Part shown: positions 1 through 26,803 of the stretch, in pieces
Layout of the letters: the number at the start of each line of letters is the position of its first letter
How positions within the stretch are numbered: position 1 is the stretch's first letter
From: Deltaproteobacteria bacterium
Lineage (GTDB): Bacteria; Desulfobacterota; Binatia; HRBIN30; JACQVA1
Direction of reading: 5' to 3'
Length of the DNA stretch: 64,000 nt
Assembly: GCA_016178705.1 (NCBI GenBank)
Contig: JACOST010000032.1
Coordinates: forward strand, 152,448 to 216,447
Notes under the pieces: generated by a model
Databases searched by the model: none
The model's input: the letters and a program-made list of their open reading frames with translations, nothing else
What the model was told of the DNA's origin: nothing
Program-made: the position numbers and the translations under genes

Positions 1-3000
1 GATCGCGACGAAGCTGGCCAGACGCGCCTCGGACGCTAGCAAGTCGTAGCAATTGGAATCGAGGCGGCCTTCGGCGACCTGGTATCCGATCGACAGGAGC
101 TGCCGTGACGGATCGAAGAGAAAGCCGAACTCCATAGCCTCGAACATCTTGCGGGCAAGCGCGGCCAGCGCCGTAAGTCGCCGCTCCAACGCGCGCGCCG
201 TGCGACCGGAATGCTCGACAGCCGCGATGAGCGCTTCCAGCGCCTGGCCTTGCGCCGCTGCGTCGCCATTTGTGTCTCCACGCGCGGCGAGGTCTGCGCG
301 CCGACCGAAGAGGATCACGAGTACCGCATCGCAGCGGTCCGGCAGATCAGCCAAGGTGGGGATAGTGTCGAAGAGCGGGCGGAGCGCCGCATCCAAGTTG
401 CGAGACGGCCCTTCGAGACGCCGCCAAAATGACGGCGGCTCCTCAGGGCAAACGGTTGTGTTGTCGGTTTGAAAGGACCGTTCCGCTCGCCCTGAGGAGG
501 CCCCATTTTTTTGGGGCCGTCTCGCAGGGCTGTCTGGGACAGGATCGACGCCCTCCGGCGCAAGCAGACGCGCCCAGGGCATCAACTCCCGCAGATCGCG
601 GTCGTGGCTCTGGATGGAGGCACGCACTGCTTCCGCCCAGGCCAGCACGTCGGCGCTGCTGCCGTCGCCACGTTCCTCGCTCAGCGCTCGCGCGATGTCA
701 GTGACGGTGTCGGCGTGAAGAACGATCTCACCGAGCAGCCCTGCGACATCCGCCGGGGTCTCCGCCCGCGACTCATCGAGCGAAACCGCGAGAGCGTTGA
801 GCGCGTCGTCCAGTTGCTTCCGCGTCACCGTTTGTGTTCGGCGGTCGTCCGCGAGCGCGCCCAAGGCCTCACGAGTGAGCCCGAGCGCGTCGGCGATCCC
901 CGCGAACCATTGTGGACCCACCACAGCCCGGCCGACCAGTTCCCGACAGGCGTTTGAGAGAGCGATCAGGTGTCCCGCGAGATTTCCGCTGTCCACGGAA
1001 GAGACGTACTTCGGCTCGAGCGAACGAAGGTCACGCGTGTCGTACCAGTTGTAGAAGTGGCCGCGAAAGCGCTCGAGCTCATTCATCGTTCCGAGCGTCG
1101 CCTCCAATTTTTCCGTGGCATCGAGCGTACCGAACCAGCCGAAGTCGCGCGCGGCAACCACCGACAGGAGGTACAATCCGAGGTTCGTCGGGGAGGTCCG
1201 ATGGGCAACCACCGGCTTCGGATCTTCCTGAAAGTTGTCGGGAGGCAGCATGTGATCATCCGCCGCGACGAAGATCTCGAAGAACCGCCATGTACGACGG
1301 GCGATCAGCCGCAGTACCTGCGCGTTCGCGGCCGACACGGGCTCGGAGCCCGCCACGCTTGGTGGACGGCTCGCCCACTGCGCCACGACCGGTGACAACG
1401 TCCACAGAATCAAGAATGGACCCGCGATCAACGCCGCACCGTGCCCGGCGTACGCGACGGCGGCGGCCCCCGCTGCAGCCAACACGACGCCGCCAGCCAT
1501 CCGACGGTAGAAACCGGGGACATTGAGGGGAAGGCTGAACTTCGCCTGCGCGGCGGTCACCCACTCGAGCATGCGTCGGTGCGAAACGAACAGACGGAAG
1601 AGCGTGCGCACGATGGCGTCGGTCATCAACCACGCCTGATGCGCGAGCAGCGTGAGCGAGAACCCAATCTGTGACAAACCGAGCGCGAGATCCGAAGCTA
1701 CTGCGAGCAAGTGGCTACGCTTCGAAATCCCGAACCGTCGCGGCAGGATGCCGGCACCAAACGGTAGCAGCGCGGGCAGCGCGATCATCGCGAGGACGAC
1801 CCCGGTCCAGACCGCGGCAGCAATAGGCGGCAACATCCACCCTGCCGCGAGCGCGAGAAAAGTAACCGGCGCCGACACCGTGCGACGGAGGTTGTCGATC
1901 ATCTTCCAACGCCCGATCAAGGGAATTGCCCCGCAGACCGGGTCGCTGGTTGCGCCCCGTCCACGGCCGAGAATCCAGGGAAGCAACTGCCAATCACCGC
2001 GCGCCCACCGATGCTGCCGCGCCGCGGCGACGTCGTAGCGCGACGGGAACTCCTCGACGACCTCGATGTCGGAAGCCAGTCCAGCGCGCGCGAAAATGCC
2101 CTCGAACAGATCGTGACTCAGAAGCGTGCGCTCAGGCACCCGCCCTTTGAGGGCGGCTTCGAAGATGTCGACATCATAGATTCCCTTTCCGGTGAACGAC
2201 CCTTCGCCGAAGAGGTCCTGGTACACGTCGGAGACCGCAAACGCGTAGGGGTCGATGCCCCCGGGACCTGAGAACACACGCTGGAAGACCGACCCCTCAC
2301 GACCAATTGGCAACGACGGCGTGACGCGCGGCTGCAGCACCGCGTAGCCGTCGACGACGCGACGGCTATGGGGATCGAGCTGCGGGCGATTGAGTGGGTG
2401 CGCCATCTTCCCAACGAGTTGGCGGGCCGCTCCCCGCGGGAGTCGCGTATCGCCGTCAAGGGTGATCACGTAGCGTACGCTGGCCGGGACCGCGGGTGCG
2501 CGGTCGCCGATGGCAAGGAAGGTCGTGTCGGTAGCGCCGCGCAGCAATCGATTCAGCTCGTGCAGCTTGCCGCGCTTGCGTTCCCACCCGATCCACTTTC
2601 CTTCTCCCGCATTCCAGCGCCGCCCACGATGGAGCAAGAGGAATCGCGCGCCATCCGGTGCGGGTCCGTAGCGTTGATTCAAGCGGGCGATGCCCTCCGT
2701 GGCAGCACCCAACAGCGCGTCGTCGTCCGGCACACTCTCGCTGGCGGCGTCCGTCCAGTCAGAGAGCAGCGCAAAGTAGAGGTCGCCGGCCTCCGCACTC
2801 GCCAGATACCGAACCTCGAGGCGCTCGATCTGCTCTTCGATCTCCGTCGGCGTGGTCAAGAGCGTGGGCACGACGACCATCGTGCGCAGGTTCGACGGCA
2901 CGCCGTCGCGTAGCTCCAACGCCGGCAGTGCCGTGGGGCCGAACTGATTCGTGACGTGGCGATTCACCAGCGCCATCGCCACATCCGACGCCGGGACGAG

Positions 3001-4434
3001 GGCGAGCAGCGCGAGCAGGCCGAGCGCCGATCCGCCCACCCCGCATTCCGCGACACCGAGCAGAGACAGAGCGAGGATGATGGCGCTGAGGATCGCGACC
3101 GTTCCTAGATATCCGAAGATCCCCGCGGCCGCGTAGACGCGAGTGAGCCAGTGGCGCATCGGCACGCGAAATCCGAGCTCCGTCTCCAAGGCCCGCCGTC
3201 CCTTGGCGATGAGGTAGTAGCCGGGATCTTGCTCACGGCGACGGTCGGGCAATTCGCAAGCAGGGCCTCGAGACGGCTCCTGGAAAGATGGGGCCTCCTC
3301 AGCCCGAGCGGTATTGTTCCTTGGTTCGACCGACTTCTTCCGTTCACCCTGAAGAGTCGCTTCTGTTGGCGGCGTCTCGAAGGGCGCGCCGTCCGCGCAC
3401 TGGGCCGCGCGCAACGCGCGCCCGGCGACTTCGAGCTCCGAGTGTCCCGAGCCGCGCGCCAGCACTTCGATCGCGTGGCGGTAGCGATCCCGCGTCGGAA
3501 AATCCATGGCGGCAAAGTCGCTGCCAGCGCGAAGCTCCGCATCGACGAGGCTGACGTTCTCGAAGAACTCCGCCCAATCAACGGCGGACATCAAGCGCAT
3601 GCTGGTGATGACATTACGCACCGTGATGTTCATCGCACCCTGCCGCTGGTGTTCCTCGCGAACGATCTCATCGGCGGTTGTGCCCTGCGCGATGAGGCGG
3701 TCGTCCAGCCAGCGCAGAGCGGGTGTCACTGCCGGATCCTGATCGCGCAGCCGCTGGACGAGCTGGACCGCGAAGGCCGGGCGCGTCCGGTCGAAGCCTC
3801 GCAGGGCCGTTGCCGCCGGCTCGGGGGCGCGGTTGCCAACTCCGAGGAGGCGGTCAGCCAAGGCGTCGGCCTCTTGGCGCGCGGCGCGACTGCTCACGAT
3901 GCGCTCGGCCGCGCGGCGCAGATTCTCGACGAGTACGATGCGCAGCGTGATCGCCACTGCCCAGAGCTCACCGATCGTGAGCGGCTGCACCCGCTGATAG
4001 GCGCGCACGAACCGGCTCAGCGTCTGCGGATCGAACAAGCTGTCGGTGTGGGCGACGAAGGCCCAGGCGATCCCAAACACGCGCGGATAGCCCGCGAGAG
4101 ATCCTTCCGCCAGCTTGGGCAACTGGCGATAGAACCCGCTGGGAAGATCGTCGCGGATCTCGCGAATCTGTTCCTCGACCACGTGAAAGTTGTCGACCAG
4201 CCATTCGGCTGCGGGGGTGATGGCGCGTTCCTCACGGATGGCTTCGCCGATGGTGCGATACGCTGCGAGCAGCACTCGGCCATTGTCCCGCAGTCGGCTT
4301 GCCAGCGGTCGACCGACCCCAGGCCGCGGCGTTACACGTTGAGCCGCAGCGAGACTCTCGGCGTGTTGCTCCAGGCGCTCGATGCTGAACAATTCGCTGC
4401 GGATCGGCTCTTCGGGCTCTCGTGGGGGAGCCAT
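1..4434 (-). CDS. cyclic beta-1,2-glucan synthase-like giant glycosyltransferase (Cgs/NdvB/ChvB family), N-terminal 1478 codons; 3' end lies beyond nt 1
   Basis: Absent from ORF track (no stop in window). Hand translation of the minus strand from ATG 4434 stays open to nt 1: MAPPREPEEPIRSELFSIERLEQHAESLA..TPAAEWLVDNFHVVEEQIREIRDDLP..LTIGELWAVAITLRIVLVENLRR; TM block; VITLDGDTRLPRGAARQLVGKMAHPLNRP and QHRWARGDWQLLPW (GT84-type core); later HRTSPTNLGLYLL..FRGHFYNWYDT. Confidence 0.85.
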   Translation of the reverse strand, partial: MAPPREPEEPIRSELFSIERLEQHAESLAAAQRVTPRPGVGRPLASRLRDNGRVLLAAYRTIGEAIREERAITPAAEWLVDNFHVVEEQIREIRDDLPSGFYRQLPKLAEGSLAGYPRVFGIAWAFVAHTDSLFDPQTLSRFVRAYQRVQPLTIGELWAVAITLRIVLVENLRRAAERIVSSRAARQEADALADRLLGVGNRAPEPAATALRGFDRTRPAFAVQLVQRLRDQDPAVTPALRWLDDRLIAQGTTADEIVREEHQRQGAMNITVRNVITSMRLMSAVDWAEFFENVSLVDAELRAGSDFAAMDFPTRDRYRHAIEVLARGSGHSELEVAGRALRAAQCADGAPFETPPTEATLQGERKKSVEPRNNTARAEEAPSFQEPSRGPACELPDRRREQDPGYYLIAKGRRALETELGFRVPMRHWLTRVYAAAGIFGYLGTVAILSAIILALSLLGVAECGVGGSALGLLALLALVPASDVAMALVNRHVTNQFGPTALPALELRDGVPSNLRTMVVVPTLLTTPTEIEEQIERLEVRYLASAEAGDLYFALLSDWTDAASESVPDDDALLGAATEGIARLNQRYGPAPDGARFLLLHRGRRWNAGEGKWIGWERKRGKLHELNRLLRGATDTTFLAIGDRAPAVPASVRYVITLDGDTRLPRGAARQLVGKMAHPLNRPQLDPHSRRVVDGYAVLQPRVTPSLPIGREGSVFQRVFSGPGGIDPYAFAVSDVYQDLFGEGSFTGKGIYDVDIFEAALKGRVPERTLLSHDLFEGIFARAGLASDIEVVEEFPSRYDVAAARQHRWARGDWQLLPWILGRGRGATSDPVCGAIPLIGRWKMIDNLRRTVSAPVTFLALAAGWMLPPIAAAVWTGVVLAMIALPALLPFGAGILPRRFGISKRSHLLAVASDLALGLSQIGFSLTLLAHQAWLMTDAIVRTLFRLFVSHRRMLEWVTAAQAKFSLPLNVPGFYRRMAGGVVLAAAGAAAVAYAGHGAALIAGPFLILWTLSPVVAQWASRPPSVAGSEPVSAANAQVLRLIARRTWRFFEIFVAADDHMLPPDNFQEDPKPVVAHRTSPTNLGLYLLSVVAARDFGWFGTLDATEKLEATLGTMNELERFRGHFYNWYDTRDLRSLEPKYVSSVDSGNLAGHLIALSNACRELVGRAVVGPQWFAGIADALGLTREALGALADDRRTQTVTRKQLDDALNALAVSLDESRAETPADVAGLLGEIVLHADTVTDIARALSEERGDGSSADVLAWAEAVRASIQSHDRDLRELMPWARLLAPEGVDPVPDSPARRPQKNGASSGRAERSFQTDNTTVCPEEPPSFWRRLEGPSRNLDAALRPLFDTIPTLADLPDRCDAVLVILFGRRADLAARGDTNGDAAAQGQALEALIAAVEHSGRTARALERRLTALAALARKMFEAMEFGFLFDPSRQLLSIGYQVAEGRLDSNCYDLLASEARLASFVAI
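408..530 (+). repeat. 123-nt TIR-bounded palindromic (MITE-like) element, copy 1, inside the glucan-synthase ORF
   Basis: Ends gcccttcgagacgcc / ggccgtctcgcagggc are imperfect inverted repeats; nested inverted repeat 441-449 vs 489-497; GGCCCC-AT7-GGGGCC hairpin 499-518; aligns by eye over its full length with the reverse complement of 3263..3385. Confidence 0.6.
3263..3385 (-). repeat. 123-nt TIR-bounded palindromic (MITE-like) element, copy 2, opposite orientation, inside the glucan-synthase ORF
   Basis: gggcctcgagacggc ... ggcgtctcgaagggc termini; core gcgactcttcagggtgaacgg..ccgctcgggctgaggaggcccc (reverse complement) matches copy 1. Confidence 0.6.
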
Positions 4435-4889
4435 CGACAGTCCCTTGAGACTGCGAACAATTGACCGCTGCAATCGTGCGCTGCCTCGCACTAGCCTGAA
4501 GAAGAAAAAACGAGCTCCAGCGAAATGTAACGGTAAGATCATCGACAAGGCGCCCTGACGGGAACGAAGAGCCCACCGCCCTCGAACGAGATGTGTGCAA
4601 CACCTTTCGTTGGAGCTCTCCTGTCTGGGCGGGCTTGCGCCCGCGCGGTGTGGGGAGACTCGGCACTCCCGATGGGCTCGTGCACAGTTGTGTCGTGCGC
4701 CTCACGGCCAACAGCACCGATGTGCCATCGCCGCGTCTGCCTGAGTGTGGGGTGAGGAAGGCTCTCGGAGGCCCAAATGCGAGGGTAATCCTCGCGCCGA
4801 ACAGTCAGTAGGAACTGCACCATAGTCCCCGCCACCCAGAGTTGCAACCTTCGGTACTGTCTCCACACGTTGCGCGCGTACTCTGCGGA

Positions 4890-6077
4890 TCAGCGCTCGG
4901 TCGTGCCTTCGCCCTCGACGCCGTGCGCGTCGATGTCTGCCAGCGCAGCTTGTAGGAAGGCGACGGTCTGCTCCAATGTGCCGGCTTGAATGCGGTCGCG
5001 GTTGTCGGCAGCCGAGTGCAGTCCGCGAATCTGCCCATCGCCATTGCGCTGACTGCCGAGGGCGACACTCGGAATTCCGGCGGCGAGGAAACTACGCGCA
5101 TCCGTGCTCACCGGTTGAATGTCCGGTACCAGGCCCGCGCCAGATACGAGCTGGCGGAGCGCGTGATCGAGAGTGCGCACCAACGTGCCGGACGCATCAT
5201 AGCGGCGCCACGCCGACCGCTCGCTGACGAAGTAGCTCAGCCCGCGCCCGTATCCCCATCGCTCGCCATTGATGACATAGGTTGGACGCGGCAGCGGCGG
5301 CATCAATCGCTCGGCCACGTAGGCCGCCGACCCTTGCAACCCGACTTCCTCGCCGGCGAACAGCACGATCTCGATCTCCGTGTGTTCGAGCGGCGGCTCG
5401 CGCCCGCCGAGCTGCTCGGCCAATTTCGTCAGCGTCGCCACCGCGGCCGCATCGTCAAGCGCGCCGGGACTGCGCGCAGACACGATCGCGCCGCCGGACA
5501 TCATCAAGAGGAAGCCGAAGAAATACAGCGGAACCAACGCCGCCCACATCCGCACGTGTCGCTCGTCATGACCGCTGGCCTGGCGCCACAGCGCCGTGAG
5601 CGGCAACGCCAGGGTGATCACCAGTATCGGCACGATGAGAAACTGGATCGGGGCGCGTTGATAATCATCGAGCAGATCCGTCTTAGTATCGTAGTGGGCA
5701 GTCAAGATCACCGTGCGCTGCGGCTGCGCGACCGGAAAGCGGGCGATGATGCTGTGCTCACGCACGGCGCCGATGCGGCTCAGCAGCGGCAGCCGCAACT
5801 CGTAGTCCAATCCCAGATACGCGGGCAACAGCGCGGCGACGAGCAGCGCCCACACGAAGCGCCGCCGCCACATCAGCACACAGAAGACGACCGACAATGT
5901 GAAGCACACCACCCCCGCCAGCCGCGCGGCATAGGGTCGACAGACGAACTCCTGCAACGAGACCTCAGCACCGGCGGCGCGCAAGGTCTTTTCGAGCGCG
6001 CTCGCCGCCTCTGTCAGACCGGCGCTGCCGTTCTCGCGCGCCGTCGCCAATCCATCGAGTAGTTGATTGATCGTCAT
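4890..6077 (-). CDS. M28-family metallopeptidase with internal membrane-spanning segments
   Basis: 395-aa ORF; VILTAHYDTKTD and LFAGEEVGLQGSAAYV motifs typical of M28 aminopeptidases; several hydrophobic helices. Confidence 0.75.
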   Translation of the reverse strand: MTINQLLDGLATARENGSAGLTEAASALEKTLRAAGAEVSLQEFVCRPYAARLAGVVCFTLSVVFCVLMWRRRFVWALLVAALLPAYLGLDYELRLPLLSRIGAVREHSIIARFPVAQPQRTVILTAHYDTKTDLLDDYQRAPIQFLIVPILVITLALPLTALWRQASGHDERHVRMWAALVPLYFFGFLLMMSGGAIVSARSPGALDDAAAVATLTKLAEQLGGREPPLEHTEIEIVLFAGEEVGLQGSAAYVAERLMPPLPRPTYVINGERWGYGRGLSYFVSERSAWRRYDASGTLVRTLDHALRQLVSGAGLVPDIQPVSTDARSFLAAGIPSVALGSQRNGDGQIRGLHSAADNRDRIQAGTLEQTVAFLQAALADIDAHGVEGEGTTER

Positions 6078-8101: not shown

Positions 8102-8359
8102 CTACTCGCTGCCGGTGAACAGCCAGTCGTCGCTCTCGGTCGGGGGCGGGACTTCTTGCCACACACAGTCGAGCGACGCGAGGATCGCGCGGGTGTGCTC
8201 CACGGCGTCCGGCACCGCGAGGACGACGATCACCGCGGTCTTGCGATCGACCGTGCGCACGATCGCGACGTCTTCGTAGGACTCGAACACGAACTTGATG
8301 AACGCGATGTCGCGGCGCGCCACGCGCAAGAAGATGGGAACGACATCGGTCGTGGTCAT
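8102..8359 (-). CDS. DUF4911-like small protein
   Basis: 85 aa; IFLRVARRDIAFIKFVFESYEDVAIVRTVD pattern; 4-nt overlap with the upstream kinase gene. Confidence 0.7.
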   Translation of the reverse strand: MTTTDVVPIFLRVARRDIAFIKFVFESYEDVAIVRTVDRKTAVIVVLAVPDAVEHTRAILASLDCVWQEVPPPTESDDWLFTGSE

Positions 8360-9957
8360 CGTGCGGGATCTGCGGGCAACGCCACGCGAAAGGTCGAGCC
8401 GACGCCGATTCGGCTGGTCACGTTGATCTCACCACCGAGCAACTCGACCACGCGCTTCACCAAGTAGAGCCCGAGTCCGACGCCGCCGCGCGCGTGTGCG
8501 CCTTGGCGGAACATGCCGAAGATCTGCGGGAGGTCCTCGGCGGCGATGCCGGGCCCGCTGTCGGCCACTGTTAACTCCAGCCGCCGCGCGGCCGCATCGT
8601 AGCCAATCGTGATGGTGATCGTGCCCGCGCGAGTGAACTTGAGCGCGTTGCTGACGAGATTGCGCACGATGAGCTTCAACTTCTCCGGATCGCTGCAAAA
8701 CCCCGGCACCGCGTCGGCCTGCCAGCGCAGTGGTACCTGTCCCCAATCCGGATACTCTTCAAACTCGAGCAGCAGCTCAGCCCACAACTGATCGAGACTC
8801 ACCGGCACCGACTCGATCAGCGAGCGGCCCGCCTCCAATCGGTTGAGGTCGAGCGTCGCGTTGATCAATGCGGCCAAGCTCAACGACGTCGAGCGCATGC
8901 GTCGCAAGGCGTCGAGCTGCTCGGCAGTGACGGGTCCGAGCACGCCCTCGATCTGCAAATCGGTATAGCCGATGATGACATTCAGCGGCGTGCGCAAGTC
9001 GTGCGACACCGACGCGAGAAAATCACTCTTGAGCCGATCGGCGCGCCGCAGTTCCTCGATCAGTTGCGCGTTCTCCACCGCGACCGCCGCTTGCATGGCG
9101 AGAATTTCCGCTCGTTGGCTCAGGCGATCATCGAGGCATCCGGGCGTGTGCGGTTCGTGCAGCGCCAGCACACCTAGCGGCCCTCGCCGTCCGTTGAGCG
9201 GCAGGAGCAACACCGTCGGTGGCACGTTCGGCTCCCCGTTGCTGTCGACGGCCATCGTCGTGCCCGTGCGCAGCGTGATCACCAGCGATCCGCCACGATC
9301 GAGCGGATAGTGCTCCTGCGACAGGAACGCCGTGGCGCCTTCGCTGGCGACCGGAACCAGGCCGGTCTCGCGCACGAGAAAGAGGCGTGCGGCGCTGACG
9401 CCGAGCAAGCGGCGCCCCTGGGAGCAAATCAGGAGACATAGCTCGTCCAGCGTCTGCGCCGCATGCAGCGCCAGCGATACCTCCGCCAAGGTGGCCTGAA
9501 ACGCGGCGGCTTCGCGCAGCTCGGCATCAGCCATCGTGCGAGCGCTCACGTCGCGCGCAACGCCGACGATCAACGGCAGGCCGTCTTGGCCGTCGATGAC
9601 CGCCGGCACGAACTCGGCATAGCTCAACGATCCGTCCTTGCGACGAATCGCCATCTCCACCGGGAACTGTAACTCGCCGCCGGCAAGAAACGACGCGATG
9701 CGCGCCCCGTTGGCGGCGAAATCTTCCGGTGTGAGCAGGTCGCTGATATTCAGTCGTGGCAGATCGGCTTCCGTGTACCCCGTAGCACGATAGAAGGCCG
9801 GATTGACCGCCAGCAACCGCCCGTCGAGATCGTGGACGTAAAACACGTCGCCAGTTTCGTTGAGCAGTCGCCACCACGCCCCGACGGCCGCGGGATCGAC
9901 GGGCGAGTGCGTCAGAGACAGTTCAGATTTGCGCGCCGGGCGTGCGATCGAATTCAC
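8356..9957 (-). CDS. PAS/GAF sensor histidine kinase
   Basis: 533 aa; PAS-like VFYVHDLDGRLLAVNPAFYRATGYTEADL; H-box FLASVSHDLRTPLN; ATPase boxes LVSNALKF, DSGPGI, GVGLGLY. Confidence 0.9.
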   Translation of the reverse strand: MNSIARPARKSELSLTHSPVDPAAVGAWWRLLNETGDVFYVHDLDGRLLAVNPAFYRATGYTEADLPRLNISDLLTPEDFAANGARIASFLAGGELQFPVEMAIRRKDGSLSYAEFVPAVIDGQDGLPLIVGVARDVSARTMADAELREAAAFQATLAEVSLALHAAQTLDELCLLICSQGRRLLGVSAARLFLVRETGLVPVASEGATAFLSQEHYPLDRGGSLVITLRTGTTMAVDSNGEPNVPPTVLLLPLNGRRGPLGVLALHEPHTPGCLDDRLSQRAEILAMQAAVAVENAQLIEELRRADRLKSDFLASVSHDLRTPLNVIIGYTDLQIEGVLGPVTAEQLDALRRMRSTSLSLAALINATLDLNRLEAGRSLIESVPVSLDQLWAELLLEFEEYPDWGQVPLRWQADAVPGFCSDPEKLKLIVRNLVSNALKFTRAGTITITIGYDAAARRLELTVADSGPGIAAEDLPQIFGMFRQGAHARGGVGLGLYLVKRVVELLGGEINVTSRIGVGSTFRVALPADPAR

Positions 9958-10084: not shown

Positions 10085-10190
10085 GTCGTCGCGACCGCTT
10101 CTTCGCCAATGGCGGCGCCGACGACGCGGCGCCCTCCACGAACCGGTTCATGAGCAGAGGCCGCCTTATTCTGGCGGCGTCTCGAAGGGC
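10085..10190. repeat. degenerate or partial copy of the 123-nt element (intergenic)
   Basis: ggcggcgtctcgaagggc at 10173-10190 is identical to the terminus at 3368-3385; upstream cgaccgcttcttcgcc resembles cgaccgacttcttccg of copy 2; the rest has diverged. Confidence 0.35.
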
Positions 10191-10284: not shown

Positions 10285-10920
10285 CTACGGCCGCGCACGG
10301 GGCTCGACCGCAATCGCCACCGCTTCGGTGTAGGTGAGTTCGACCAGATCACCGACGCTCAGCAGAACCAGTCGCTCGGGATTGCGGACCTTCACGGGCA
10401 TCAGCTTCCCTGCCGGACCCTGCAACACAATCATCCCCAGCCGCTCGTTGATTTCCTTGATCGTTCCGGTGACGGTCGCGACACGCGCAATCGCGCCGGC
10501 GGGTCTGTCGCCGAGTTGCGCTCGGTCAACCTCCACGCCCAATGCGGCTCCTGGCTGCGCGCCGCCCGCCGGCTTGACCTGGTACGCGATCGATTCGTAG
10601 TAGGTAACGGCGACTTCGTCGCCGCTTTTGACCTGATCGAGATTCCGCACGTCGTCACCAACCGCTGTTGTGAACGTCGAGCCGTCCGGCCGCTTGAGGG
10701 TCACGTGACGCGTCTTGGGATCGACGTGTTCGACGATCGCCGTGGCCTTCACAACGGTCTCGCCCAAATCTCCACCCAGCTCCTCAGCCGCTGCGCCCGC
10801 CGACTGAAACGCGGGGTCCGGTATCGGCGCTATCTGTGGCACTGGCGGTGACGCAGAACATCCCGCCAACAGCATCGCCCCGATTGTCGCTAGTCCAACT
10901 CTCCGCTCGCGCATTTCCAT
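10285..10920 (-). CDS. lipoprotein with two tandem small beta-domain repeats, function unknown
   Basis: Lipobox LLAGC after MEMRERRVGLATIGAM; two similar segments (VEHVDPKTRHVTLKRPDGS..GDEVAVTYYE and IKEINERLGMIVLQGPAGK..GDLVELTYTE). Start taken at M11; the ORF extends to 10950. Confidence 0.65.
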   Translation of the reverse strand: MEMRERRVGLATIGAMLLAGCSASPPVPQIAPIPDPAFQSAGAAAEELGGDLGETVVKATAIVEHVDPKTRHVTLKRPDGSTFTTAVGDDVRNLDQVKSGDEVAVTYYESIAYQVKPAGGAQPGAALGVEVDRAQLGDRPAGAIARVATVTGTIKEINERLGMIVLQGPAGKLMPVKVRNPERLVLLSVGDLVELTYTEAVAIAVEPRARP

Positions 10921-10960
10921 TCCTCCCCTTCGCGTCCAACACCGAATCAAACGTCGCCGT

Positions 10961-12503: not shown

Positions 12504-15500
12504 TCACGCGCACTCGCCGAGCGCGTTGTTGACGCCGACCACTAGTTCATCGACCGTCACGTCGCCGCTCTGATCCCCGTCGAACTCGGGACAGTTCTCC
12601 AGTGGCACCGTTCCGAGCGCGATGTTGACGCCCAGCACCAGTTCTTCAACCGTGACCGCGCCGTCATGACCGCAATCGCCAACGCACGCCGGACCACCAG
12701 TCGTGGTCGGCGTCGGTGAGGCGCCCGGGGTCGTGGGCGTCGCGGTCGGCGTTGCCCCAGCACCGGCTGTGGTCGCGGTCGGCGACGAGGTGAAGGAGGC
12801 CAAGCCGGTCGTAGTTACTGTCGGCGTCGCGATCACCATGCCTGTGGGAGTTCGCGTCGGCGTAGGAGTCTGGGTTGGTGTGGCCGTCGGCGCATCCGGC
12901 ACGCTCAGATCGATGGCCCACAGCTCGATACCGTGAATCCCGTCGTTCACGACGAAGAAGAGATGATTGGCGGACACCCTGAAGTTGTACCCGGCGATCG
13001 CCGCGATAGGCACAGTGCCAGCGTCGGTGCCGTCGCTGCGCCACAGTTGTGTGCCGTGCACGCCATCGTTGGCGTCAAAGTAGAGTGTGCCACTCACATT
13101 GGTCAGAGATGACGGAAATGAGTGACCCGCCCCTGGATTGATATCCTTCACCAGCACCGTGCCGGTAGAGGTCCCGTCACTCTTCCACAGCTCGATCCCG
13201 GTGGTGCCGTCGTTGGCCGAGAAGAAGAGCGTGCCGTTGACGTTCGTGAAACCCGTTGGATTCGATCCAGTGGCGCCCGGAGCAATATCCTTCACCATCG
13301 TCGTGCCGGCGTCAGTCCCATTGCTGCGCCACAGCTCGCTGCCGTTGATTCCGTCGTTCGCCGTGAAGAGCAGCGTGCCGTTCAAATTGACAAGCTCGGC
13401 AACCCCGCCGCCGCTACCACCCGGGTGAATGTCTTTCACCAAGACGGTGCCGGCAGGCGTGCCGTCGCTCTTCCACAGGTCTCTGCCGAAACCGCCGTTG
13501 AAGGTGGCCACGGTGGTGAAGAAGAGCGTCGTGCCGATCGGAACAAAATTCTTCGGAATCGACGCCAAAGAGCCCGGAGCAATGTCCTTGACTTGAATCG
13601 TTCCCGCATCCGTCCCGTCGCTCCTCCAGAGCTCAATGCCGGTGGTGCCATCATCCGCTGTGAAGTAGAGGAGATTGCCGACGGCGGCCATGACGGGCGG
13701 AAAGGACGGATTGTCGTTACTGCCGGAGGAACCCGGATGGATATCTTTCACCAGGACTGTGCCGTCGGTCGTGCCATCGGTCTTCCACAGTTCGTAACCG
13801 TGGACCTGATCGTTGGCGTAGAAGAACAGCCAACCCCCGGCAATGGTGAAGCTGATCGGTGCAGAGTCGACCGTTCCGGGACGAATATCCTTCACCAACG
13901 TCGTACCCGCTTCCGTGCCGTCGCTCTTCCACAACTCGCGGCCGTGGGTGAATTCGATCGCGGAAAAAAACAGCGCTCCGTTGAATACCGTCAATCCCGC
14001 AGGTGGTGAGGTATTCGGCGGCTGGATGTCCTTGACTTGCATCGTGCCGGCATCGCTGCCGTCGCTCGTCCATAGATCGTACTCGGGGACACGTTGACTG
14101 GCGTCGCCGGCGTTCCTAGCCGAGAAGAAAAGTTTGCCCGCGAAGTTCGTGAGCGAGTCCGGAATACTGTCGGCCGTTCCGGGATAGACATCCTTGACCA
14201 GATGCGTGCCGGCATCCGTTCCGTCGCTCGTCCACAGCTCCGTGGCGCTCAGCGGATCGGTCGCGGCAAAGAACAGCCGACCATTGGCAACGATGAGATT
14301 GGACGGGTTGGAGTTCGCCGCGCCGGGATAGATGTCTTTCACCAATACGGTTCCGTTCACGGTCCCATCGCTCTTCCACAGCTCGGTCCCGTGCGTGCTG
14401 TCGCTGTTCACAAAGAATACCGTGCTGCCCAATTTCGAGAACGAGCCGGCAGCGCTAGATTGAATGGATCCGTGATTAGTGAGGGGGATGGTCCCGGCTT
14501 CCGTCCCGTCGCTCTTCCACAAATCGGAGCCCGTCGCGCTAAACGCCGCGAAGAACAGCGTGCCGTTTACGTCCGTAAACGCGAATGGGCTTTGGGCGAA
14601 GCTCTTCACCACCACCGTGCCGGTGGTCGTACCGTCACTCTTCCACAGGCCCGATGTCGTCTGGTCAACCGCCGCGCTGAAGAAGAAAGTACTACCGACA
14701 GCGCCCGCTCCGTAGGCAATTGGGAAGAGAGGGAAATTCGCAATCGCGTTGGTACCGCCGGTGGTGCCGTCGCTCACCCACAAGTCGAAGGTCGAACCGT
14801 TCGCCCCCAACGTCTGAAAAAAGAGCAAGTTGCCCGCCGCACTCAGACCGCTTGGTCCCACTCGAAGCAGGTTCGGCGGGAAGCTCTGCAGAAGTACAGT
14901 ACCGGCGTCGGTGCCGTCGCTCTTCCACAGACCAAAGCCGGTGCCGACACGCGCCACGAACAAGAGCGCTCCGCCGACGTTGACGAGACCCGAAGGGAAC
15001 GAACCTAGCCCACCGGGCACGATATCTTTCACTAGAACGGTTCCGGCTTCAGTGCCGTCGCTCTTCCACAACTCGTTGCCGCTCACGCCGTCGCTGCCAC
15101 TGAAGTACAGCACCCCGTTGACGTTGGTGAGGCTGTTCGGAATGATCGTCTTCACTAGCACCGTACCGTTGCTCGTGCCGTCGCTCTTCCACAAACCCAC
15201 GTGCGTTGCGTCCACCGTGGCGCTGAAGAAGAGGGTGCCGTTCACGTTGATGAACCCACTAGGCCTCGATTCGCCATTGGGGTTGATGTCTTTGACGAGC
15301 ACCGTGCCTTGCGCGGTGCCGTCGCTCTTCCACAGCTCGACGCCGTGCACACCGTCGTTGCCGGCGAAGAATACCGTGTCACCGACCGCCCCGGTATCCG
15401 CCACGCCGATCCCGCTCGGTTGCGGATTGATGTCCTTGACCAGGTAGGGTGCCGACGCGCCGTGTGCGAGCAACGGAGTGCCGAGAGCCAGCGTCAGGGC

Positions 15501-15527
15501 AATCAGAGCCACGCGCAGTTGAATCAT
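12504..15527 (-). CDS. secreted ELWxxDGT-repeat protein (about 17 repeats) with Pro/Thr linker and C-terminal dockerin-like double EF-hand
   Basis: True start at M369 of ORF 12504..16631 (MIQLRVALIALTLALGTPLLAHGA signal peptide, GGAGGA SD upstream); repeated ELWKSDGTxxGT..VKDI.PG; PTATPTQTPTPTRTPT linker; GDCGHDGAVTVEELVLGVNIALG + DGDQSGDVTVDELVVGVNNALG. Confidence 0.85.
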   Translation of the reverse strand: MIQLRVALIALTLALGTPLLAHGASAPYLVKDINPQPSGIGVADTGAVGDTVFFAGNDGVHGVELWKSDGTAQGTVLVKDINPNGESRPSGFINVNGTLFFSATVDATHVGLWKSDGTSNGTVLVKTIIPNSLTNVNGVLYFSGSDGVSGNELWKSDGTEAGTVLVKDIVPGGLGSFPSGLVNVGGALLFVARVGTGFGLWKSDGTDAGTVLLQSFPPNLLRVGPSGLSAAGNLLFFQTLGANGSTFDLWVSDGTTGGTNAIANFPLFPIAYGAGAVGSTFFFSAAVDQTTSGLWKSDGTTTGTVVVKSFAQSPFAFTDVNGTLFFAAFSATGSDLWKSDGTEAGTIPLTNHGSIQSSAAGSFSKLGSTVFFVNSDSTHGTELWKSDGTVNGTVLVKDIYPGAANSNPSNLIVANGRLFFAATDPLSATELWTSDGTDAGTHLVKDVYPGTADSIPDSLTNFAGKLFFSARNAGDASQRVPEYDLWTSDGSDAGTMQVKDIQPPNTSPPAGLTVFNGALFFSAIEFTHGRELWKSDGTEAGTTLVKDIRPGTVDSAPISFTIAGGWLFFYANDQVHGYELWKTDGTTDGTVLVKDIHPGSSGSNDNPSFPPVMAAVGNLLYFTADDGTTGIELWRSDGTDAGTIQVKDIAPGSLASIPKNFVPIGTTLFFTTVATFNGGFGRDLWKSDGTPAGTVLVKDIHPGGSGGGVAELVNLNGTLLFTANDGINGSELWRSNGTDAGTTMVKDIAPGATGSNPTGFTNVNGTLFFSANDGTTGIELWKSDGTSTGTVLVKDINPGAGHSFPSSLTNVSGTLYFDANDGVHGTQLWRSDGTDAGTVPIAAIAGYNFRVSANHLFFVVNDGIHGIELWAIDLSVPDAPTATPTQTPTPTRTPTGMVIATPTVTTTGLASFTSSPTATTAGAGATPTATPTTPGASPTPTTTGGPACVGDCGHDGAVTVEELVLGVNIALGTVPLENCPEFDGDQSGDVTVDELVVGVNNALGECA

Positions 15528-15964
15528 TCCTTCCTCCTGCAGATCGACTCGAACCGACTGCGACCGCACCCATGCGCCACCACGACCCCGTACAGACACA
15601 GCCGCGGCTCTTGTATCCTCAAGCAGCGTCGTTTTTCCAGTACGAAACAACGACGGCCCAGACGGCTCAGCTCTTACTCGCGCCGGAAGGCGTACGCGCA
15701 TGCCGGCGCGCATCGCGTCGTTCTGTGGGCGCTCGCCGACGAGTGCGCTCAACTGGAAGTGTTCCGCAAGCGCGTCGTGCCACTGCTCGATGGTTAACGG
15801 ACGTAGGCTGACGTGAGGGGTCCGCCTGCGTGCCGTGACCGGTGAGTCTCGATCGTGATCCGTAGCTCCGACGCCATCCTGTGCGATCGGCGGCTTGCTG
15901 GGCGAGATGCGATTGCTCACGTTGCTCGCACGCTTACGATTTATCTCTCCGCGACGAGCACCGC

Positions 15965-17014
15965 TCAAGGTGCCGCCGCACGCTGTTCCGCGCGATGAAT
16001 GAAATCGCGTACCACCTTGAGGTATTTGTCCGACTCTTCGAAGAACGGCGTGTGGGCACTCTTCTCGAAGATCACCATCTCTGACCCCGGCAGCGCGTTG
16101 TGGCACAACGCGGTCGCACGCGGGCTGGTCTCGTCGAAGCGCCCCGCGATGTAGAGGGCAGGAGATTTGATTTCCTTCAGGCGCGCGGTCTGGTCCCAGT
16201 CTTTCAGGTTTCCGGTGCAGGTGAACTCGTTGGGACCCTGCATCGTGACGTAGACCGCTTCGTTGGCTCCAGCGAACGCGCGTTCGAGGGCGTCGGGCCA
16301 CACCGCAAGCCTGCACACATGCCGCTTGTAATACTCGAGGACGGCGCTCTGGTATTCGGGGCACTGGGTGTATCCGCCCGCTTCGTGACGGTCCAGGGTG
16401 GCGCGCGTAGCGGCGGGAAGTTCCTTGCGATAGGTGGCCGCGTCGCGCGACCATTCGGGGAACGAGCACAATGGGTTGGAGAAGATCAGACTCACGACAC
16501 CATCGGGCTGCGTGAGTGCATAGTCGGTCAGCAGCATCGAGCCCCACGACTGCCCGAGAATATGCGCGCGCTTCAATCCGAGCGCACTGCGAAGTTCTGC
16601 GAGCTCCTCGACGAAGCGGTCGATCGTCCACAGCGACTTGTCATCCGGGTGATCTGATTTTCCCGAGCCGAGTTGGTCGTAGAAGACCACCGGTCTTTCG
16701 TGGCACAACACGCCAATCGGTTCCAGGTAGTCATGCGTGAATCCTGGGCCGCCATGCAGTACGATCAGCGGCGTCGCATCGCCGTCACCAACAATTTCGT
16801 ACCAGACCTTGCCGCCCGTGACAGTGACGGAGCCCTCTCGCACCGCGCATCCGAACGGGAATTGTGAATTCTCCGCCCAGGCGATGCTTGCGAGCGTGGA
16901 AAGGCTCACCACCAGGATCACTAGCAGCGCTCTCGTCGTCGGGCGCGAGCACTCACTGAACATTGGGTTTTCCTTTCCAGAACTTGAGCGCTTATCGCGC
17001 ACGCGCGAACTCAA
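15965..17014 (-). CDS. secreted proline iminopeptidase-family alpha/beta hydrolase
   Basis: 349 aa; PLIVLHGGPGFTHDYLEP and nucleophile elbow GQSWGSMLL; hydrophobic signal segment; start may be M18 (16963). Confidence 0.8.
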   Translation of the reverse strand: MSSRVRDKRSSSGKENPMFSECSRPTTRALLVILVVSLSTLASIAWAENSQFPFGCAVREGSVTVTGGKVWYEIVGDGDATPLIVLHGGPGFTHDYLEPIGVLCHERPVVFYDQLGSGKSDHPDDKSLWTIDRFVEELAELRSALGLKRAHILGQSWGSMLLTDYALTQPDGVVSLIFSNPLCSFPEWSRDAATYRKELPAATRATLDRHEAGGYTQCPEYQSAVLEYYKRHVCRLAVWPDALERAFAGANEAVYVTMQGPNEFTCTGNLKDWDQTARLKEIKSPALYIAGRFDETSPRATALCHNALPGSEMVIFEKSAHTPFFEESDKYLKVVRDFIHRAEQRAAAP

Positions 17015-26621: not shown

Positions 26622-26677
26622 GCGTGCCAGAACCTGCCCCAGGTGAGGGTTTGGCGCAAGCTCAGCCTTGTCCGACT

Positions 26678-26759
26678 GTAGGGGCGACGCATGCGTCGCC
26701 CGCGAACTAGCAGGTTCGCCACGGTTGAAGACGGAGGGCGATGCATGCATCGCCCCTAC
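26678..26759. repeat. 82-nt composite element: two 24-nt units (GTAG + perfect 20-nt palindrome) inverted, 34-nt spacer
   Basis: gtaggggcgacgcatgcgtcgccc (26678-26701) and gggcgatgcatgcatcgcccctac (26736-26759); same 24+34+24 architecture at 60557..60638. Confidence 0.7.
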
Positions 26760-26803
26760 GCTTCAGAGACAATCGACGGTCTCTGCGAAGGAAGCGGAAG
26801 GAG

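Follow-up and report, generated by a model that had tools for sequence, protein, structure and literature searches.

In-frame insertions of palindromic repeats are best known from Rickettsia, and intragenic repetitive extragenic palindromic (REP) sequences have been catalogued in other bacteria (PMC3733652). The element described here is a 123-nt palindromic repeat present as two mutually inverted copies, copy 1 (408..530) and copy 2 (3263..3385), both within the minus-strand cgs/ndvB gene at the beginning of a 64,000-nt stretch of a Binatia genome (NCBI GenBank assembly GCA_016178705.1, contig JACOST010000032.1, positions 152,448 to 216,447), hereafter referred to as the window. Both copies very probably represent a dispersed, non-coding, multi-hairpin palindromic repeat that is tolerated in frame in cgs, is abundant in Binatia and has a sister form in Alphaproteobacteria. 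Because phenomena of this kind are already known, the contribution is a new family and host range and not a new principle: in-frame palindromic insertion would be extended to free-living, G+C-rich, uncultured bacteria of soil and groundwater. Beyond the routine are the apparent spread over two phyla, the three-hairpin junction formed by the element, and the fact that these two cgs sites are occupied in other species as well, in one of them with the element inverted.

By analogy, the closest functional counterpart is the Rickettsia palindromic elements (RPE, families RPE-1 to RPE-10; Ogata et al. 2000). RPE are described as palindromic, non-autonomous sequences of ~100-150 bp that occur intergenically and in frame in unrelated genes (PMC10969869, PMC3733652); as with the present element, a hydrophilic peptide is added at fold-compatible positions, and no transposase has been identified for either. 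RPE hosts, however, have reduced intracellular genomes, whereas the present hosts are free-living, G+C-rich, non-rickettsial Binatia and Alphaproteobacteria, and ~5% of sampled copies are intragenic here versus nearly half for three RPE families (PMC10969869). The present element also forms a three-hairpin junction with outer arms, and the likeness to RPE is one of description. QMITE1 of Coxiella burnetii, according to the same source (PMC10969869), is likewise a small inverted-repeat element giving in-frame fusions or insertions in host open reading frames (ORFs).

Again by analogy, the closest structural counterparts are REPINs and CGTC-tagged REP dimers. Repeats of the REPIN/RAYT and TIR/TIRYT systems are inverted doublets of hairpin units that fold into a larger hairpin (PMC3733652), and, like the present element, REPINs combine short conserved motifs beside covarying hairpins with an absence of target duplications and a mostly extragenic, occasionally genic location. 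The present element differs in being without the GTAG tag (its conserved flanks are GAGACG and CTCCTCAGG) and in its longer units, which surround a third, long hairpin; in the loci examined, among which no search with a RAYT query was made, such units were not seen to flank a RAYT or TIRYT gene. The CGTC-1 to CGTC-4 REPs (Di Nocera et al. 2013, PMC3733652) occur, like the present element, mainly in Alphaproteobacteria and as inverted dimers with structured spacers, and share with it a CGTC motif abutting each small hairpin, documented intragenic copies and no dedicated transposase (PMC3733652). In some metagenomic loci a CGTC-type stem, GTCATTCCCGC...GCGGGAATCG, encloses the element. However, the stems of the present element are 6 bp and G+C versus 8-9 bp starting with A-T in CGTC REPs, its loops are 7-9 nt (Binatia-type; shorter in some Alphaproteobacteria-type copies) versus 4-5 nt, it is without a CCA tail, and its CGTC stands 3' of the third hairpin (on the other strand, of the first) as part of the terminal inverted repeat (TIR) stem, versus an unpaired head in CGTC REPs. 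[quoted passage not shown] The element was therefore assigned neither to the REPs or CGTC REPs nor to the MITEs in the strict sense, since it departs from the CGTC features, has no GTAG and shows no duplications.

We could not find this family described in Rfam or through full-text sequence strings; sequences of RPE, RIME, Bru-RS and CIR were not compared. Rfam gave no relevant match at gathering thresholds over the whole window or at permissive thresholds over 300-3500, and full-text searches of the literature with diagnostic strings returned only chance primer matches. BLAST against PLSDB plasmids gave no match to copy 1 and only 41-45-nt partial matches, in Rhizobium plasmids, to an Alphaproteobacteria-type copy. 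A profile of the encoded peptide, run against 5.8 billion proteins, retrieved four tiny hypothetical proteins and was useless as a census.

Two in-frame insertions in cgs

The cgs/ndvB gene covers 1..4542 of the minus strand and runs off the window start, its start codon lying between 4434 and 4542; over the copy 1 region the sole long open frame runs on the minus strand, 4701..1. Contig JACPZC010000024.1 of GCA_016195705.1 matches the window at 100% identity, and in the source contig cgs has 3023 codons, a single terminal stop and no additional element. Assemblies from three other sequencing runs were 100% identical to the window wherever they overlapped it, and one of them (L245) spans copy 2. 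The gene is intact, and the inserts are not an assembly artefact. The encoded protein aligned with A. tumefaciens Cgs (8RF0/8RF9, E = 0), contains the QHRWARGDW motif, and has the domain order N-terminal domain - transmembrane - GT84 - cyclase - GH94 in an intact frame. Homologues carry PF10091, PF06165 and PF17167, the best match among up to 120 of them being 77% identical.

Copy 1 had been proposed, in an original prediction made from the window's letters alone, as a TIR-bounded palindromic element lying in frame within this gene, and all the motifs named there were present: termini gcccttcgagacgccgcc/ggggccgtctcgcagggc, cctcagggc at 441-449 facing gccctgagg at 489-497, and GGCCCC-A-T7-GGGGCC at 499-518. 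A further hairpin, absent from that prediction, is CCGCC-aaaatgac-GGCGG at 421-438. On the coding strand the order is TIR-L GCCCTGCGAGACG, three hairpins (H1, H2 and H3) and TIR-R CGTCTCGAAGGGC, where H1 is GGCCCC(A7T)GGGGCC, H2 is the long hairpin TCCTCAGGGCGAGCGG...CCGTTTGCCCTGAGGA and H3 is GCCGCC(gtcatttt)GGCGGC. Both copies are, as predicted, 123 nt or 41 codons long and lie in the open minus-strand frame 4701..1, in which the expected peptides were obtained: PARRPQKNGASSGRAERSFQTDNTTVCPEEPPSFWRRLEGP for copy 1 (residues 1302-1342) and APFETPPTEATLQGERKKSVEPRNNTARAEEAPSFQEPSRGP for copy 2 (residues 349-389, in the translation of the minus-strand gene), with numbering starting at the A after Met-4434.

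The claimed alignment of 408..530 with the reverse complement of 3263..3385 was reproduced end to end in a global alignment at ~78% identity, formally significant by shuffles and by covariance model, with a 20/20 terminus (GCCCTTCGAGACGCCGCCAA) and a 15/15 internal block in common. The 18-mer terminus occurs five times in the window at <=3 mismatches, versus 0.38 expected, and none of 100 shuffles equalled this count. A covariance model seeded with eight aligned Binatia-type copies, the two window copies included, matched copy 1 on the minus strand at 114.8 bits (model positions 1-124) and copy 2 on the plus strand, its model orientation, at 110 bits, scores that are inflated because both copies are among the eight seed members; the model boundaries coincided exactly with 408-530 and 3263-3385. 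The terminus earlier noticed to recur intergenically at 10173-10190 belongs to a third, truncated copy of 93 nt (copy 3, 10098..10190, plus strand; 36.2 bits, E 2e-7), which retains the exact 20-nt right terminus and is flanked by the beginning of one gene, for a PAS/GAF histidine kinase (8356-9957, minus), and by the end of an ORF at 10285-10950 (minus), as judged from Pfam matches of the neighbours. Other matches in the window were at chance level; one at 2049-2167 (E ~0.01) was rejected as chance, as it falls in the conserved GT84 core and shows no length difference from orthologues.

The RNA fold of copy 1 had a free energy of -87.1 kcal/mol (z = -9.2; DNA fold z = -6.5). In copy 2 the hairpins are decayed and most pairing is lost (RNA fold z = +1.2), so that the folding expected of the element was found for copy 1 and not for copy 2.

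The size of 123 nt holds for the core and not for the whole element. Most family copies carry outer inverted arms, and the core is thus part of an element of ~150-175 nt. Beside copy 1, the coding-strand sequence GAGGGCGTCGATCCTGTCCCAGACA (531..555, minus; encoding EGVDPVPDS) resembles the family arm GAGAGTGTCGAT, as found in the metagenomic cgs gene L177, and lies at the distance from the core usual for the family according to a flank consensus of 67 copies; it is probably the outer arm of copy 1. Beside copy 2, TGCTTGCGAATTGCCCGACCGTC (coding strand, 3240..3262, minus; encoding ACELPDR) matches the family arm GTGCTTGCGAGAAAATCGACAGTC and is common to the copy in a second metagenomic cgs gene, L237 (TTTGCGAGTGTATCGAGAGTC). 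Since each cgs copy retains one outer arm, on one side, the inserted DNA is nearer 150 nt per cgs site. Directly 3' of copy 1 on the coding strand, an 11-nt terminus-like stretch CGTCTCGCAAC (397..407, minus), read together with the last core base, matched the reverse complement of TIR-L at 10/10 positions, and L177 shows the same feature; this stretch may be a remnant of an older terminus or a part of the target.

Orthologues, the comparison that the original prediction had suggested for the copy 1 segment, are without either segment. At the copy 1 site the linker is 67 aa versus an orthologue median of 28 aa (n = 82, maximum 32), none of the 81 orthologues aligned there containing copy 1; the corresponding figures for the copy 2 site are 61 aa and a median of 22 aa (n = 121). 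The alignment with 8RF0, the cryo-EM structure of A. tumefaciens Cgs, is interrupted at both sites (query 344-397 = chain 358-367; query 1279-1414 = chain 1236-1246). Judged by these alignments, the segments are insertions and not ancestral sequence. A longer copy 2-site linker in another homologue (P0001) was rejected as a decayed copy: its DNA similarity was not significant (score 18; shuffles, mean 16, maximum 25), and the model did not match it.

In the published domain map of A. tumefaciens Cgs, the cyclase domain comprises residues 979-1535 and includes a protruding helical motif of ~120 residues. By that map the copy 2 site is the junction of the N-terminal domain with the first membrane helix, and the copy 1 site lies inside the cyclase domain. 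Both sites would be variable, solvent-exposed connectors, with copy 1 placed in a loop of the cyclase-domain helical bundle. AlphaFold models built with 29-30 homologues gave mostly coil for copy 1 with its arm (predicted local distance difference test, pLDDT, 44-57; flanking helices mostly >90) and for copy 2 with its arm (pLDDT 48-64; flanking helices mostly >80), and 85-90% of the inserted residues are polar or small. According to these models, two surface loops of Cgs gain about 41-53 floppy residues. The inserts are most likely translated as Pro/Glu/Ser/Arg-rich, disordered loop extensions that the enzyme tolerates, and cgs would then be a concrete, datable case of new surface loops derived from selfish DNA in a structurally solved enzyme.

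Architecture and distribution of the family

An exact scan for the 18-mer terminus, with one genome per species, yielded at least 120 loci, the matches listed being mostly from Alphaproteobacteria and Candidatus Binatia metagenome-assembled genomes (MAGs). In 31 of the 120 loci listed a partner arm lies 36-146 nt away, and their full sequences share one architecture. A metagenome scan with an internal Binatia-type pattern yielded at least 120 loci from soil and sediment (631 kb). Profile searches delimited 38 elements in the MAG loci and 136 in the metagenomic loci listed, 70 of the latter at full length, so that, altogether, more than 170 delimited copies lie in other contigs and organisms; the further copies that the original prediction had suggested looking for thus exist both in the window and elsewhere. 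Covariance-model matches scored 100-136 bits for loci of Binatia and 45-83 bits for those of Alphaproteobacteria, and the model recovered extra copies without the search word (L008, three; L098, two or three; L002, two). In several MAGs, different contigs bear copies, giving two or more per MAG.

Binatia-type copies are 118-126 nt long and nearly collinear with copy 1 (e.g. L036, L038, L048, L066, L083 and L087, the last from a record labelled Margulisiibacteriota). The sister form of Alphaproteobacteria, at 95-130 nt, has the order CCTCGTCCTTCGAGACG - hairpin - CTCCTCAGGATGAGG ... CCTCATCCTGAGGAGCC - hairpin - GCGTCTCGAAGGGCGAGG.

The consensus fold of the eight seed copies has a 9-bp outer stem, the TIR, which closes H1, H2 and H3; either DNA strand, or an RNA copy, folds in this way. 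The TIR is 9-13 bp (CTTCGAGACG / CGTCTCGAAG) and is paired in 97% of cells. Over all model matches, 95.9% of cells were paired, versus 82.6% in shuffled alignments and 36-48% with partners slid, and the covariation score was 0.282 versus 0.088. Because this alignment holds both strands and is fitted to the model, pairing was recounted with one strand per element: among 38 independent elements H1 was 97% paired with 47 double-change cells (variants GGCCCC/GGGGCC, GCTTGC/GCAAGC, GGCGC/GCGCC and GCGAAC/GTTCGC), while almost no variation was seen in the outer stem or at the base of H2 (TCCTCAG/CTGAGGA). H3 is variable yet paired in the copies found without the search word. From the conserved blocks and the variable but paired hairpins it follows that the element is an inverted doublet in which two units [CTTCGAGACG - variable hairpin - CTCCTCAGG] flank a spacer that varies.

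Outer inverted arms were delimited in 67 metagenomic copies in the order GAGAGTGTCGATAAAC, ~9 nt, core, ~9 nt, GAAAATCGACAGTCTC. Complementary flanks, counted beyond the 5th percentile of controls (control level 5%), were found in 38% of copies over the first 26 nt outside the core, in 20% at 26-56 nt and in 6% at 56-86 nt (control 5%). With its arms the element remains small (<500 bp) and has no ORF of its own.

Most family copies are intergenic, with open frames that are interrupted within tens of bases, at least to one side. Their lengths span 95-159 nt among MAG loci, and in the metagenomic set most fall at 119-127 nt, without preference for multiples of three. Frames open for >=300 nt on both sides surround 18 of the 88 metagenomic copies with a judgeable flank. 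By-eye inspection of 17 of these placed four just upstream of a real start codon (L184, L142, L169 and L201) and two in seemingly spurious frames (L181 and L144); five loci, corresponding to four distinct genes, are genuine in-frame insertions with homology on both sides. These genes are a P1B-type ATPase (L202, where a single HAD-domain match spans the element), a PPDK_N enzyme (L164, the same gene as L227, again with a single domain match across the element) and the two cgs genes L177 and L237. About 5% of sampled metagenomic copies are accordingly intragenic and in frame. In all genic copies examined (four in cgs, one in the ATPase and one in the PPDK_N enzyme) the frame is kept and free of stops, and the net added length is divisible by three. 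Of the frames on either strand, TGA within CCCTGAGGAG closes just one, which makes the element unusually easy to fit into reading frames. For annotation, the family is a source of many spurious 'hypothetical proteins' and can distort gene calls.

Nested and abutting copies occur in L044, L045, L078, L098 and L237. An extra 24-nt mini-insert, consisting of a CCTGAG block and a CGTNTCGAAGG terminus, lies inside or adjoining H3 in L045 (7101-7246), L078 (1153-1298) and L177 (coding-strand left end), and from its sequence looks like a nested fragment of the same family. Several full-length metagenomic copies are enclosed by a further inverted pair of variable sequence (e.g. gtcattcccgcgggag ... 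ggaagcgggaatcg), in two cases the CGTC-type REP stem GTCATTCCCGC / GCGGGAATCG; such pairs suggest either that the element inserts into existing hairpin loops or that it has additional outer layers.

Sister-form copies were seen in L002, L007, L008, L030, L031, L035, L042, L043, L055 and L059, as well as in L072, L074, L084, L098, L119 and L016 (Zavarzinia sp. CC-PAN008). They carry the same conserved blocks, but with CCTCAGGATGAGG / CCTCATCCTGAGG in the middle hairpin. The copy of Zavarzinia sp. CC-PAN008 (L016 4490-4603) is 114 nt long, and the frame around it stays open over 355 nt to one side of the copy and over 1430 nt to the other. A 769-aa frame in L157 (Ga0315288_10037873) holds an Alphaproteobacteria-type copy (…FETAPERTAPPQDER…HPEEPPPEERSVSKG…) in its N-terminal part and, 200 residues later, a Binatia-type copy inside a possibly real protein that is without a Pfam match; since this frame holds both types, both subfamilies may coexist in one genome.

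Shared cgs sites, rival explanations and spread

The insertions are not confined to the present genome: two further species-level cgs genes have the element as well, at these same two sites. L237 cgs, 76% identical to the window protein over the N-terminal 1424 residues, has it at the copy 2 site, oriented as in the window and with identical junctions left and right. A 99-nt half element, again a multiple of three, is nested in this homologue of copy 2; with the nested piece removed, the alignment to copy 2 is gapless over 153 nt at 75.8% identity, and its 51 codons comprise 22 that are identical, 10 with synonymous and 19 with non-synonymous differences. L177 cgs, 81% identical to the window protein, has the element at the copy 1 site, where the right-hand junction is that of copy 1 and 24 extra nt are present. 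Its core is opposite to copy 1: the model scored 103 bits on the non-coding versus 81.6 bits on the coding strand, an H3-type hairpin comes first, and 107 positions matched copy 1 when reverse-complemented versus 94 in the same orientation. The nearest relatives are empty at both sites (P0002/L122, 87% identical to L237; P0001/L121, 85% identical to L177). The shared states CCTCAGCCC and GGGCTTCGAG were rejected as an argument for the descent of copy 2 and the L237 copy from one insertion, as both states are common subfamily variants.

The shared sites may be read either as old insertions followed by in-frame loss in some lineages and in-place inversion in one, or as repeated insertion into a preferred target. 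The latter, with the target perhaps the remnant of an earlier terminus, fits because nested and abutting copies occur elsewhere in the family. In the interpretation put forward at the outset, the element would have inserted at least twice in cgs, and the inserts would have survived because their net length is a multiple of three, their frame is stop-free and the sites are tolerant.

Several points weigh against parts of this interpretation. Genic copies were found through open frames, so that disrupted or bypassed insertions would be missed. Differences between copy 2 and its L237 homologue number 8, 13 and 16 at codon positions 1, 2 and 3, which is weak evidence of coding constraint. Copies in unrelated contigs share 88% identity with copy 1, versus 84% for the L177 copy, which ranks 9th of 79. 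Taxon labels were taken from MAG records and may include binning errors. A crude search of ~1.5 Mb of loci found no transposase next to or between family termini, the portion of the source genome scanned being the window and ~5 kb of adjoining contig (L244).

An inverted duplication within one gene, or an assembly artefact with no mobile family behind it, might be suggested by the presence in the window of only two full copies, both in the same gene. The more than 170 delimited copies elsewhere, the third window copy and the independent assemblies that are 100% identical across copy 2 already refute that explanation. Copy 1's structure of -87 kcal/mol would be a strong obstacle to ribosomes in a coding region, and the inserts could then go untranslated, through removal of the hairpin from the mRNA or through ribosomal bypassing (cf. 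phage T4 gene 60 and mitochondrial 'byp'), to which the open-frame criterion is blind. This is very improbable: genic copies keep the frame, are multiples of three and are free of stops, the nested 99-nt and 24-nt additions included, all of which would be unnecessary if the inserts were skipped, and copy 2 has kept its frame although its structure is lost. A structured signal in RNA or DNA kept by the host, acting for example in bidirectional termination, mRNA stabilisation or protein binding, with the cgs copies as by-products, would account for pairing that is very stable, conserved and covarying in H1 and H3 and for the location of inspected intergenic copies near gene ends or starts, as described for REPs (PMC3733652). 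We regard it as unlikely, however, given that no Rfam family matched, that both strands fold almost equally well, that copies lie inside ORFs, nested, truncated and in either orientation, and that copy 2 persists although its fold is lost.

The label of a MITE/REP-like repeat that had colonised a gene without inactivating it, given in the original prediction, stands in its general sense; a strict MITE was not shown, as neither target-site duplications nor a transposase was found. Duplications, named there as something to look for, were sought by eye, at the core boundaries of 31 copies and in the flanks of 25 of the 67 metagenomic copies, and no consistent direct repeats were seen; because the true outer boundary is uncertain, very short duplications are possible. 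A classical MITE would be an internally deleted insertion sequence (IS), cut and pasted as double-stranded DNA by a DDE transposase that recognises the TIR or the outer arms. The element is small and non-coding, has many dispersed copies, clear TIRs and outer inverted arms, and is often partial or nested, as in many MITE families. Yet consistent flanking direct repeats were missing at core and extended boundaries alike, the stretches between distant TIR pairs in the loci examined contained neither a longer ORF-bearing element nor a parent IS sharing these ends, and the compensatory changes that preserve the internal hairpins would not be needed for recognition of double-stranded ends. We consider such an origin doubtful, though not negligible.

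For the dispersed repeat tolerated in frame, spread would instead follow if a REPIN-like element were mobilised in single-stranded, folded form through the action in trans of a RAYT/TIRYT-type (IS200/IS605) HUH tyrosine transposase. This route fits best because there are no duplications, motifs stand beside covarying hairpins, the units form inverted doublets and the element nests in itself. It is nevertheless the weakest step of the account, and we hold it tentatively, at somewhat under even confidence. The design of conserved motif and covarying hairpin, together with the shared cgs sites, offers a handle for finding the mobilising enzyme.

A bolder proposal, which we offer as quite improbable, is that the element would be a self-targeting module present in two phyla, whose near-perfect two-fold symmetry allows either orientation in frame, for which the copy 1 site serves as a reusable docking site, and which is mobilised by a transposase not yet linked to such repeats. 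At the copy 1 site opposite orientations are found in two species, and the nearest sampled relative of each occupied allele is empty. If the proposal were true, the insert at the copy 1 site would be a natural 'linker cassette' that is gained, lost and flipped, altering loops of a giant enzyme, and a new transposase would bear on what moves the CGTC-type repeats of Alphaproteobacteria.

Minor observations on the window and on cgs gene calls

A marginal model match in the window at 26674-26763 (17.8 bits, E ~0.01, both strands) is either a very decayed copy or chance. The window also holds a 1375-aa ORF at 12504-16631 (minus) without a Pfam match at E <= 0.001.

In the index for the source contig (L244 11188-12445 = window 3633-4890), the start of cgs is called at window 3633, whereas L245 calls it at 4542. 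The former call lies ~800-900 nt downstream of the likely start and skips 270-300 N-terminal codons that are clearly homologous to other Cgs; it looks like a wrong start. In the closest relative, L121 (9420-9667, JGI Ga0643842_0001316), cgs is called as two genes of 2139 aa and 838 aa, ~250 nt apart and with no family element between them, which could reflect a real split, a frameshift or a different insertion before the GH94 domain. Many other Cgs homologues likewise end at ~2100-2200 aa.

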